This document shows positions 7,001 to 10,000 of a stretch of DNA of 23,641 nt, one piece after another. Source of the stretch: a virus (Duplodnaviria; Heunggongvirae; Uroviricota; Caudoviricetes); IMG/VR virus record IMGVR_UViG_2703718795_000013, positions 1-23,641 of that record. One strand, written 5' to 3'. Position numbers: made by a program. Within the stretch, counting starts at the first letter, position 1. The number at the start of each line of letters is the position of its first letter.

Positions 7001-10000
7001 ACGTTGCATCCGCCGGAGTGCCGCTGTTACCATGCGGCGACGATCTTTATAAATGGTTGTACATGCCATTTGTTATTTCCCGTATGCTTTTCTGAGAAAC
7101 AGTATTGCAACTGACCAGTATCCTGCATTAGCCATTAATAATGCGGTTTTATAAGCGTTTCTATTTTTCATGCATCACCATTATTTTCTGGTTGTGGAAA
7201 TCCACGACCAGAGGCCGTCATGTTTTTATGTGTGATTTTTTACTGAGTGTTCTTTATTCGTTGCGTAGTGTTTCTATATACTCGTAAGCCATTTCACAGG
7301 TCTTATTCATGGAGCGAATGAGACAGCATAAATAATCGTCTGTCTCTCCTTGGTCGGGCGAATTCTTAAATATAAATTCAAGCATTGATGTATTCTCTTT
7401 TATTTGTGCCGCCACTTCCTCAAGAATATTTAATGGAGTTATCATGTTCTTTGCTCCTTAAATGCATCGCATGCGCTTCTGGCGTATTGTTGTGCCAGTA
7501 AAAAGATATCATCCGAAAGTTCATCACATTCTTCATCACCGGAAGCCGAAATGATTAACCCCGCTTCAAGCAGTACGGCAATGTGATGAAAAGCTGTCTC
7601 CGGTTCGTTGGTAAGGCCTTTGAACATTTTCATCTTATGCTTCCTCCTGATTTTGTTTATAAGCATCAGTCAATAACAACATTGGATCACAGCCAAGAAC
7701 ATTAGCCAGAGGGATAAGCATGCTGATGGTTGGTTCGTACTCTCCGCTTTCCCACTGGATGATAATTTCTTCATCGAGATCGAGCAGCCTGGCGAGTTCG
7801 GCGGTTGTTAAGCCGCAGGCTTCGCGTTGGGTGCGGATTTTATTTGGTTGTTTGTTGATTATGTGATTATGTAATGGATAAGTAGCAGACAGGGCGTATT
7901 CATGAACAAACTCCATGACTTCAAACCCCAATTCTTTAGAGCGATCACCATCAATTAAATGGAAAGTACGAGCAGCACCTACCAGATTTGCAATATTTAA
8001 TGCAAAGGATTCTTTTTCGAAGTGGTTTAAGTTCGATATCTCAGCGGTTGTCAGATCTTTCATTGAATCACCATCAATTTAAAATTAACAATAAATCAAG
8101 TTAAAATTGATGGTGTGATGTTAGATCTTGATTGACGGAGTTGTCAAGAAAAAATTGATTTCTGCGTCTCTTTTACTTGATTTGTAAATTTTTCTTTAAT
8201 AATCAATAATTAACCAAATCTATTTATATTGAATGGAACAGATGAGATTACCTTCGATTGGATATAAAGCAGCTCAAGAGCATCTTTTTCAATGCTCCAG
8301 GATTGGTAATTTGGGTTATCAGATAACACCATGATTTTACTTCCTATCTTTTGTAATCTTTTGACGTAGCATTCACCATCAAAGCAAAAAGCATAAATGC
8401 CATCACCATCAAAGTAATTCACTGTTTTATCGAGAAAAAGAAGATCTCCTGGGGCTATTGTTGGAGCCATACTATCTCCTCTTGCGTTACCAATCTCTAT
8501 GTTTTGAAATGCTCTATTGCCAACAAGGCGACGGGCATATTCAGGATCAAGCTCGATTGAGCGAACTACATCGATAAAGTCCCCACGGACATGTGTTCCA
8601 TCGCCGCAACTAAACTCAACATTGAGCACGTTAAAGACCACACTGTCAGTTCTTGCTTGATGTTTTTCCTTTGAAGAGAACTGCCGTGACGTGATTTCTC
8701 CTAAAAACCACGATTGCGGATAACCACTTATTTCGGATAACTGGGCAAGCCGGTTTCCCCTTGGAAATGTTTTTCCTGTTGTCCAGTACTGTACGGACTG
8801 TGCGCTGACACCTAATTTTCGGGCCAGCTCTGCTTGGCTCCAGCCTTTCTCCTGTAGCAGCTTTGTAATTCGATTTTCAGTGCTCTTTAAGTTTTTCATT
8901 GTTAATCCTTGCTGGTTACTTGGTTTCGATAAATTTTTACTTGATTTTAGTGTATTCGATCTTTTGTGGACTTGCATGTTAATTTAAACTTGATGTAATC
9001 TTGAATTTATAAAGTTTAGATTGGTGGGTTGCGATGAAAGGAAATGATTACGACGCACTTCGTGAGCTAATTGCACAAAATGCCATAGCGCGAAATCTAG
9101 GCGTTACGCCGCAAGCTGTGAACCAATGGTTTTCAAAAAGAACAATTCCTGCTCGTTTCGTCTTGCGTGTATGTGAAGTTGTGGAATGGAAAGTTACTCC
9201 TCATGGGTTAAGACCAGATCTTTATCCCCATCCTGAAGATGCAATCCCTGATTTGTTACGTAGAAGTCACACAGCCACAAATGCGGCAGTTATGAAAAAC
9301 GAATGATGAAGGGCTTGTATGTCCCAGAATTACGTTCAGACAGAGATGCCATCTAGGCACTGCCAGGCAGACGAAGAGTGGATTCAGCAGCAGTTACAGG
9401 GGCTGCCTCCGTCACTGAGACGGAAGGTCGCCCTGAAATATGCGGAGGTATACGAAATCACTTTTGACGCTGAGCCTGTTTCATTCCGCAAGGAGAACAG
9501 AGCAAGGCACGAAGCAAACACAAGGCTCCGCTTGTTTGTGAGAAATCAGGGCAGAGCTTTACAGGGGTATACAACTCAGCCGCCCCTGGCAGGAACGCAA
9601 TCGCGCTCCTGATTGGTACCGGGCTTAAAGGTGTCCGGTGGCTGAATCCCAAATCTCATTGCATTTTTGTACTAGTTAAAGAGTACGCACAAAATTCAAT
9701 GAGAGGAGGGGAGGGGGAGGAGTGCCCGTGTGTTAGTGCGAAGCACTGGAACAGGCTTTTCCAACAGACGGGTACATAGGTTAGGTAGATCTCGATCTAA
9801 AGGGGGATACCCCTGAAAAAACGGCTGTACCAGAAAGCTAGTACAAGATGGATAAAAAAGTATGAGTGAAGATCTGAAGCAAAATTTAATCGCTCTCCTG
9901 GAAGAGCAATTCATTCGCTCCGATGACAAAGTCGTTTTCGATTATGTGATGCAGAAAAAAATCAAGTCTCAGGGATACCACCTGCAACGCAATTTCAGCA

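Follow-up and report, generated by a model that had tools for sequence, protein, structure and literature searches.

Three acidic helical-hairpin proteins at the promoter-proximal end of the early-left operon in a lambdoid Shiga-toxin phage lacking N

Results

A three-gene cassette behind the early leftward promoter

The window analysed here is a stretch of 23,641 nucleotides (nt) from a member of the Caudoviricetes (IMG/VR record IMGVR_UViG_2703718795_000013), and our subject is a cassette of three minus-strand open reading frames (ORFs) at 7254-8209. It opens the early leftward (PL) operon of a lambdoid Shiga-toxin (Stx) phage lacking gene N and encodes three modular helical-hairpin proteins. 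The window is 99.8% identical in DNA over 2 kb to Escherichia phage phi467, an Stx2f Shiga-toxin phage from E. coli EF467, whose record labels ORF1 as 'transcriptional repressor DicA' and ORF2 and ORF3 as hypothetical proteins. On the minus strand a cI-type repressor gene is followed by a 146-bp intergenic stretch and then by ORF1, ORF2 and ORF3, closely packed, and the coordinates that a first-pass annotation had given for the three ORFs were confirmed.

ORF1 (7635-8063) encodes 142 amino acids (aa), which its translation, the HTH_3 match and an AlphaFold2 (AF2) model divide into an N-terminal helical hairpin, a short disordered linker and a C-terminal acidic domain of XRE fold. ORF2 (7442-7633) and ORF3 (7254-7445) each encode a stand-alone acidic hairpin of 63 aa and match phrog_4587 (E 4e-34) and phrog_6882 (E 7e-40), respectively, over their full lengths. 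A 74-aa alternative form of ORF2 starting at the ATG at 7666 appears in the ORF listing; phi467 and all homologues use the 63-aa form. The junction of ORF1 and ORF2 reads TAA-G-ATG, a gap of one nt and not the two of the first-pass annotation, and ORF2 and ORF3 are joined by the overlapping stop and start (ATGA) that it had described. Read from the sequence, the Shine-Dalgarno site of ORF2 (AGGAGG, 7643-7648) lies nine nt upstream of its start within the last codons of ORF1, and AAGGAG (7459-7454) precedes ORF3. The TAA-G-ATG junction is kept in loci L013 and L031-L035, and both junctions, like the ribosome sites and the reading frames, persist in diverged copies of the cassette.

All three products are acidic, with an isoelectric point (pI) of 4.69 and a net charge of -12 for ORF1 (11 lysines plus arginines in 142 aa), and values of 4.45 and -7 for ORF2 and 4.31 and -7 for ORF3, as expected from the earlier description of two acidic 63-aa proteins. 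In the informative comparisons the ratio of nonsynonymous to synonymous substitution rates (dN/dS) was 0.04-0.12 for ORF2 and 0.09-0.18 for ORF3, the latter at synonymous rates (dS) of up to 1.3; the ratio is noisier for pairs with few substitutions. These values indicate that ORF2 and ORF3 are genuine genes under purifying selection.

The cassette is predicted to be driven by a PL-like sigma-70 promoter on the minus strand (TTGACA-18-TAACAT, 8118-8147, 10/12 matches in a consensus scan), and the ATG of ORF1 lies 55 nt downstream of it. A repeat search found three 16-nt operator-like repeats of the TCAAGnnAAAATTGAT type (family D1) at 8074-8089, 8096-8111 and 8144-8159, of which the last overlaps the -35 element and the second lies against the -10, spanning the probable start of transcription. 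These repeats have inverted matches at the right operator (OR) in the cI-cro intergenic region (8929-8947 and 8977-9009, both orientations), so that the repeats within 8064-8209 are taken as the left operators (OL) for CI and Cro and not as sites specific to ORF1. Promoter and OR-shared repeats together make ORF1 the first gene after OL/PL, the position of lambda N, in agreement with the earlier placement of it as the first gene leftward of an OL-like region. An inverted repeat in the ORF1 leader (8069-8115) matches the same operator repeat family; it was considered as an RNA structure hiding the ribosome site and rejected, its folding being no better than that of shuffled sequences (z -0.79, for a fragment, 8112-8040, in which the upstream arm is short of its first 3 nt).

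The repressor gene upstream (8210-8899, minus strand) encodes a 229-aa cI-type protein with an HTH and an S24 peptidase domain (HTH_3 E 6.5e-9; Peptidase_S24 E 9e-17), as annotated in phi467. Its start is ambiguous, the longest ORF giving 255 aa from the ATG at 8977 and phi467 and relatives annotating 229 aa from the ATG at 8899; the operator-like repeats at 8929-8947 would fall inside the 255-aa version, which favours the 229-aa start. No minus-strand terminator-like sites were seen across 4500-9700, and since none lies between the cI stop and PL, transcripts from the repressor maintenance promoter (PRM) might enter the cassette in lysogens, for which the expression of rexAB in lambda lysogens is a parallel. 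Loci L015 (2857-3000) and L018 (2855-3000) have a clear intrinsic terminator directly after cI. On the 3' side of ORF3 lies a hairpin with a 10-bp stem (CTGGTCGTGG-ATTT-CCACAACCAG, 7188-7211, minus strand), which was examined for a nut-like or terminator role and rejected: it occurs once in the window, lacks a U-tract and is broken up by substitutions in L014 and L030, which makes a conserved RNA element improbable.

An acidic XRE-fold domain carrying variable hairpins

ORF1 matches Pfam HTH_3 at aa 76-127 (E 3.5e-11), which bears out the C-terminal XRE-type helix-turn-helix (HTH) seen at first pass, and phrog_4836 with E 1e-58. In the AF2 model the hairpin domain, of a sequence type we call A1, spans aa 14-68 (7860-8024, minus strand) with helices at 14-36 and 40-68, and the XRE-fold domain spans aa 75-130 (7674-7841, minus strand), has a net charge of -7 and shows the predicted five-helix arrangement of its fold. 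The predicted local distance difference test (pLDDT) score is 73 for the whole model and about 78-85 for the hairpin block, and the predicted template modelling (pTM) score is 0.43.

Homologues of ORF1 are mostly 216-247 aa long, with a variable N-terminal stretch of about 60 aa ahead of two tandem XRE domains; those of 125-153 aa, the window's among them, have one. Across 40 diverse sequences the first XRE domain hardly varies, 26 of its columns being invariant, and the N-terminal parts joined to it fall into at least eight sequence types (A to H). In the E. coli two-HTH proteins (P0006, P0013, P0054 and others) the second XRE domain carries a conserved WECG(I/T/V)CE motif with a third cysteine about 20 residues further on, a possible metal or redox site; the Salmonella versions are without these cysteines.

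The charge of the first XRE domain is characteristic of the family, averaging -7.2 over 120 members, whereas the DNA-binding domains of 434 repressor, 434 Cro and the window's own cI and cro products range from +3 to +9. For 215 related XRE domains the charge has a median of 0, and a value of -7 sits in the acidic tail. In a hand alignment the positions of the 434 repressor contacts Q28, Q29, K38, K40 and R43 are occupied in ORF1 by E, E, E, E and I, and to judge from the sequence the basic or polar DNA-contact surface expected on the recognition helix and the following loop is missing. A k-mer comparison of PL regions with the same HTH and different repressors found no common operator, only A-runs and -35-like words, and no inverted repeat suited to autoregulation by the HTH was conserved at the promoters of loci that share it. 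The XRE-fold domain of ORF1 has thus probably lost ordinary operator binding. The first-pass suggestion of an acidic effector with an HTH autoregulator fares poorly here, given the charge and the Glu/Ile contact positions of the HTH, the lack of a shared operator, the assignment of the local repeats to CI and Cro, and the kinship of the small proteins with hairpins that is described below.

Family searches

ORF2 and ORF3 had no meaningful match in Pfam, NCBIfam or PADLOC, and in these general libraries neither matched known anti-CRISPR (Acr), anti-CRISPR-associated (Aca) or other anti-defence families. ORF1 returned generic XRE/HTH matches only, and models for rex, sieB, N and CII, including Phage_CII in Pfam, gave no match. 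The NCBIfam DicA model scored 33.8 bits against a cut-off of 101, MqsA_antitoxin 14.2 against 30 and TIGR03830 24.9 against 61.8; DicA carries its HTH at the N-terminus, that of ORF1 being C-terminal. Pfam SinI matched none of the cassette proteins, a sequence search of the PDB returned generic XRE domains only and fold searches returned generic hairpins only. The labels attached to relatives ('CII-like regulator' in PHROG, 'putative CII repressor' in phage ASU11, 'DicA' in phi467) are automatic names, the phiP27 GenBank record calls its relative 'L10; unknown', and full-text literature searches found no paper addressing this gene. As far as these profiles reach, none of the three genes fits any curated named family, and no known N-analogue, repressor or established family was recognised, so the earlier statement that the cassette is not rexAB, sieB or any named system stands.

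ORF2 and ORF3 are free versions of fused hairpins

The AF2 model of ORF3 (pLDDT 93) has helices at 4-28 and 34-62 and is a hairpin of the same kind as the N-terminal domain of ORF1. Pairwise BLASTP among ORF1, ORF2 and ORF3 gave nothing, and the homology of the hairpins is visible with profiles only. The phrog_4587 profile of the ORF2 family also matches ORF1 at aa 16-61 (E 2.9e-7). The ORF2 family aligns end to end with the fused type D (hhalign E 3e-8; phmmer 23 bits to P0092 aa 9-62) and also matches type B (hhalign E 4e-5), while the ORF3 family matches type H (hhalign E 9e-9) and ORF3 itself the N-terminus of Salmonella P0188 (hhalign E 2e-12). A free 66-aa protein encoded by the next gene in two-HTH loci is type-A-like (E 2e-10 to type A) and bridges to ORF2 (E 8e-4). 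In Salmonella the first PL gene carries an ORF3-type hairpin fused to two XRE domains, and the second, of 211 aa, an ORF2-type hairpin (E 2e-17) with one XRE domain, followed by a free B/D-like hairpin.

By these profile matches ORF2 and ORF3 are the stand-alone counterparts of hairpins fused to the same HTH in other E. coli and Salmonella prophages, ORF2 being related to fused types D and B and, through intermediates, to A; every hairpin lineage tested occurs free or fused. Upstream of the hairpin modules, L018 (3648-4013) and L026 (3710-4345) have an extra N-terminal domain of about 60 aa (MKKFENITVLYVDEF... and MHKFEDITVLHIESS..., respectively), a further exchangeable unit of this gene group.

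The fused hairpin follows the repressor

Two layouts recur among related loci. In the first a single-HTH protein is followed by the ORF2-ORF3 pair (the window, L013, L014 and L029-L035), and in the second a two-HTH protein is followed by a free A-like hairpin (L004, L006, L007, L010, L015, L024, L025 and L036); L018 and L037 have a 121-aa protein at the free-hairpin position, the C-terminal half of which is an A-like hairpin in L018. The cassette or its two-HTH variant stands first from PL in N-less phages encoding Stx1a, Stx2a, Stx2d, Stx2e (phiP27) and Stx2f (phi467). Some part of the cassette is matched in 354 of 5426 complete E. coli genomes (about 6.5%), most of the matches listed being to the HTH segment only, and the whole cassette with OL is present in 7 of the 5426. 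The group is narrow, comprising E. coli, Salmonella enterica and Citrobacter koseri, and a profile search of 1.84 billion representatives gave 22 clusters at E <= 1e-30 with no informative fusion partner.

DNA similarity between prophages breaks at about 7835, the hairpin/HTH boundary, which marks a mosaic joint. We compared repressor, hairpin and HTH identity pairwise across 14 loci. Each of the 10 pairs in which repressor identity exceeds 60% shares a hairpin type (50-100% hairpin identity), and in each of the 81 pairs in which it is 60% or less the hairpins are at most 37% identical, with a median HTH identity of 80%. For types A, B, F and G the coupling of hairpin and repressor is seen in either layout, and it holds whatever genes lie downstream. 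Within one repressor family cI is 87-94% identical and the HTH about 90%, with hairpins at 48-59%, so the hairpin domain diverges faster than either flank.

The free pair, whose two members are inherited together, behaves differently. ORF2 is identical and ORF3 nearly so beside unrelated repressors (the 229-aa S24 protein of the window, a 151-aa non-S24 protein in L030 and a 219-aa LexA-like protein), and the pair is found in at least five repressor/hairpin contexts; it is thus not repressor-specific. Judged by this co-variation the fused hairpin belongs genetically to the immunity module, and the HTH and the ORF2-ORF3 pair do not track the repressor. A rule that free hairpins always differ in type from the fused one, as cross-phage decoys might, was rejected because L015, L024 and L025 carry a fused A with a free A-like hairpin.

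Neighbouring genes and antitermination

ORF1 resembles lambda N as the first gene from PL, a likeness of position only. Lambda N is small, basic and arginine-rich and needs nut sites; ORF1 is acidic and folded and has no arginine-rich motif, a scan for arginine-rich N-termini did not flag it, and the earlier remark that the first PL gene is not an N-like protein is supported. The one boxA-like match in a search for nut sites lies at 8881 (plus strand) inside cI, and an Rfam search returned two tRNAs only. Composition and the lack of nut-like elements led us to exclude ORF1 as an N-like antiterminator. If the phage has one, the better candidate would be the fourth PL gene (6710-7069, minus strand), which encodes a 119-aa protein of the phiP27 'L08' family (phrog_1737) with an arginine-rich start (YKDRRRMVTAALRRMQRKTG) conserved in relatives; it matched no family model, and no nut site was found.

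Between this gene and the cassette is a 32-aa ORF (MKNRNAYKTALLMANAGYWSVAILFLRKAYGK, 7073-7171, minus strand) that ends 3 nt ahead of the next ATG and is annotated in some records only. Its C-terminal ..(L/Y)LRKAYG(K/R) and its position are kept in L006, L014, L015, L029 and L030 of E. coli and in Salmonella L026. Further along the minus strand a 69-aa acidic ORF (phrog_340, 6501-6710), whose C-terminus resembles antirepressor C-termini, is overlapped at its end by a 73-aa basic ORF with a GTG start (6308-6529; Pfam ParE_like E 1e-19), and the two look like a toxin-antitoxin pair within the early-left operon; the same pair is present in L013, L015 and L030. On the plus strand two tRNA genes (17930-18080) lie downstream of the stx genes, and in the replication region (about 10342-12000) a DEAD-box helicase and a primase-type protein replace lambda O/P. 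This is the 'Eru'-type non-lambdoid module described for Stx phages (PMC8044961, PMC8951638).

Discussion

We propose, with a probability of roughly 40%, that the cassette is an early module acting through protein-protein contacts, with a logic akin to SinR/SinI or AimC/AimX. SinI and AimX belong to a class of small helical proteins (29-80 aa) that mimic the oligomerisation domain of their regulators, SinR and AimC, and form hetero-complexes with them (bioRxiv 10.1101/2025.11.23.689978). In both cases an XRE-fold protein with a helical oligomerisation domain adjoins small proteins that resemble this domain, and the cassette would follow the same logic with its predicted hairpins, the homology of free and fused forms seen with profiles and the adjacent, coupled genes. 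The cassette differs in its reversed domain order, the hairpin of ORF1 being N-terminal, in lacking a Pfam SinI match, in an HTH that looks unfit for DNA binding, and in having two free hairpins, of different types, with no one-to-one correspondence to the fused type.

Hairpins of two helices and this length commonly assemble in pairs as four-helix bundles, and with this tendency the three proteins would associate with proteins rather than bind DNA. The hairpin of ORF1 may self-associate within an immunity group, or it may dock on a partner specific to the immunity group, for instance CI or Cro, and so carry the conserved acidic domain to that partner. The free hairpins could bind one another or compete for the interfaces of hairpins, as SinI titrates SinR and AimX titrates AimC, and the outcome would be a modulation of the lysis-lysogeny switch right after PL fires. 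A second regulatory circuit, which the first-pass annotation had offered as one option, fits better, if tied to immunity, than an effector with an HTH autoregulator, hairpin type co-varying with repressor type.

A number of observations weigh against this proposal. Confidence in the ORF1 model is modest; the direct similarity of type A to ORF2 is weak (hhalign E 0.03, nothing with BLASTP), and ORF3 is linked only to type H and not to ORF1's own type. The recognition helix looks normal in some relatives (the 147-aa protein of L013 and Salmonella P0216), so DNA binding may be an ancestral property that is still retained. Fused types A, C, D, F and H are all found ahead of the free A-like protein, and this want of a consistent pairing argues against a one-to-one decoy relation. 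The coupling of hairpin and repressor, finally, could be plain physical linkage, with the conserved HTH DNA serving as a recombination joint.

Other phage systems offer partial parallels. Linear plasmid-like phages have transcription factor-small ORF (TF-smORF) induction modules, in which the transcription factor switches on a small gene with a transcript of its own and the encoded protein inactivates the cognate cI (PMC10432266). Like the cassette, these modules (Silpe et al. 2023), which vary widely in sequence, place a phage HTH protein next to a gene for a small protein of about 60-80 aa, there acting on the lysis-lysogeny switch; the cassette differs in being one translationally coupled operon behind PL, and the co-occurrence of an identical ORF2 with unrelated repressors argues against a cI-specific antirepressor of that kind. 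The MOR antirepressor of lactococcal TP901-1 (PDB 6TRI) is a single small HTH without a hairpin at the Cro position and has only its fold in common with ORF1.

Among the alternatives, an anti-defence or host-takeover role is one we consider unlikely. The acidic hairpins, and perhaps the XRE-fold domain, would inhibit host proteins in the immediate-early phase, for example as DNA-mimic-like inhibitors of restriction, RecBCD or another defence system, and the variable hairpins would reflect an arms race. The cassette does hold the earliest PL position, and lambda places Ral and Gam early in its PL operon; all three proteins are acidic, the hairpins diverge far more than the cI and HTH beside them, and hairpin modules shuffle between free and fused forms. 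An effector domain fused to an HTH regulator is known among anti-CRISPRs, AcrIIA1 being an example, and Acr/Aca operons likewise combine small acidic proteins with an HTH protein or set a variable domain on a conserved HTH, although in the cassette the gene order is reversed, the HTH is acidic and no family-specific match was found. Against this role, a net charge of -7 over 63 aa is only moderate for a DNA mimic. Further, ORF2 and ORF3 are conserved (dN/dS about 0.1) and not diversifying, the variable hairpin goes with the type of repressor rather than with the lineage of the host, and neither the families nor the folds searched lend support.

We likewise doubt that ORF1 is an ordinary early transcription factor, whether as an additional repressor, as an activator resembling CII or as an autoregulator, that dimerises through its hairpin while ORF2 and ORF3 play unrelated roles. 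The automatic labels of relatives ('CII-like regulator', 'DicA', 'transcriptional regulator' in PHROG and GenBank) point that way, as do the normal recognition helix of some relatives and the common use of hairpins for dimerisation in HTH proteins. However, the domain has its charge of -7 and glutamates at recognition-helix contact positions, the DicA model stays far below its cut-off and Phage_CII does not match, PL regions with the same HTH share no operator and the local repeats are those of OL and OR, and the paralogy of the small proteins to HTH-fused hairpins would be left unexplained.

The two remaining alternatives are very improbable. A type II toxin-antitoxin-like system would have ORF1 as an antitoxin similar to MqsA or HigA2, in which an N-terminal partner-binding part likewise precedes a C-terminal XRE HTH, and one of the small ORFs as the toxin, but ORF2 and ORF3, both acidic helical hairpins, gave no match to any toxin family and are homologous to the supposed antitoxin's N-terminal domain or to hairpins fused to the same HTH, and the operon has a separate ParE-like toxin gene further downstream (6308-6529). 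That ORF2 and ORF3 are non-functional 5' fragments of hairpin-HTH genes stranded by recombination would suit a highly mosaic locus in which each has a fused counterpart elsewhere, but dN/dS of 0.04-0.18 at dS of up to 1.3, together with frames, Shine-Dalgarno sites and coupled junctions that stay intact in diverged copies, makes debris of this kind unlikely, and the pair recurs in at least five repressor/hairpin contexts.

Conclusions

Four points are new here: the relation of the small proteins to HTH-fused hairpins, which for ORF2 probably includes ORF1's own N-terminal domain; the modular group in which hairpins occur both free and fused; the acidic pseudo-HTH; and the way in which the type of the fused hairpin is coupled to that of the repressor. 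A more specific version of our proposal, which we regard as rather unlikely, is that N-less Stx and related prophages of E. coli, Salmonella and Citrobacter use an early switch component not described before, in which an immunity-group-specific hairpin is an 'address' on an acidic pseudo-HTH that targets the phage's own CI or Cro or insulates the protein from its equivalents in co-resident prophages, the free hairpins tuning this or cross-interfering, possibly in poly-lysogens. If hairpins are specificity devices of this sort, they would add a further, new level to immunity-group identity among lambdoid phages and might let prophages interfere with one another. Production of Shiga toxin depends on a switch of the prophage to lytic growth, so that tuning of that switch affects disease, and if the address model holds the module would help to set the induction threshold and hence the output of Shiga toxin.

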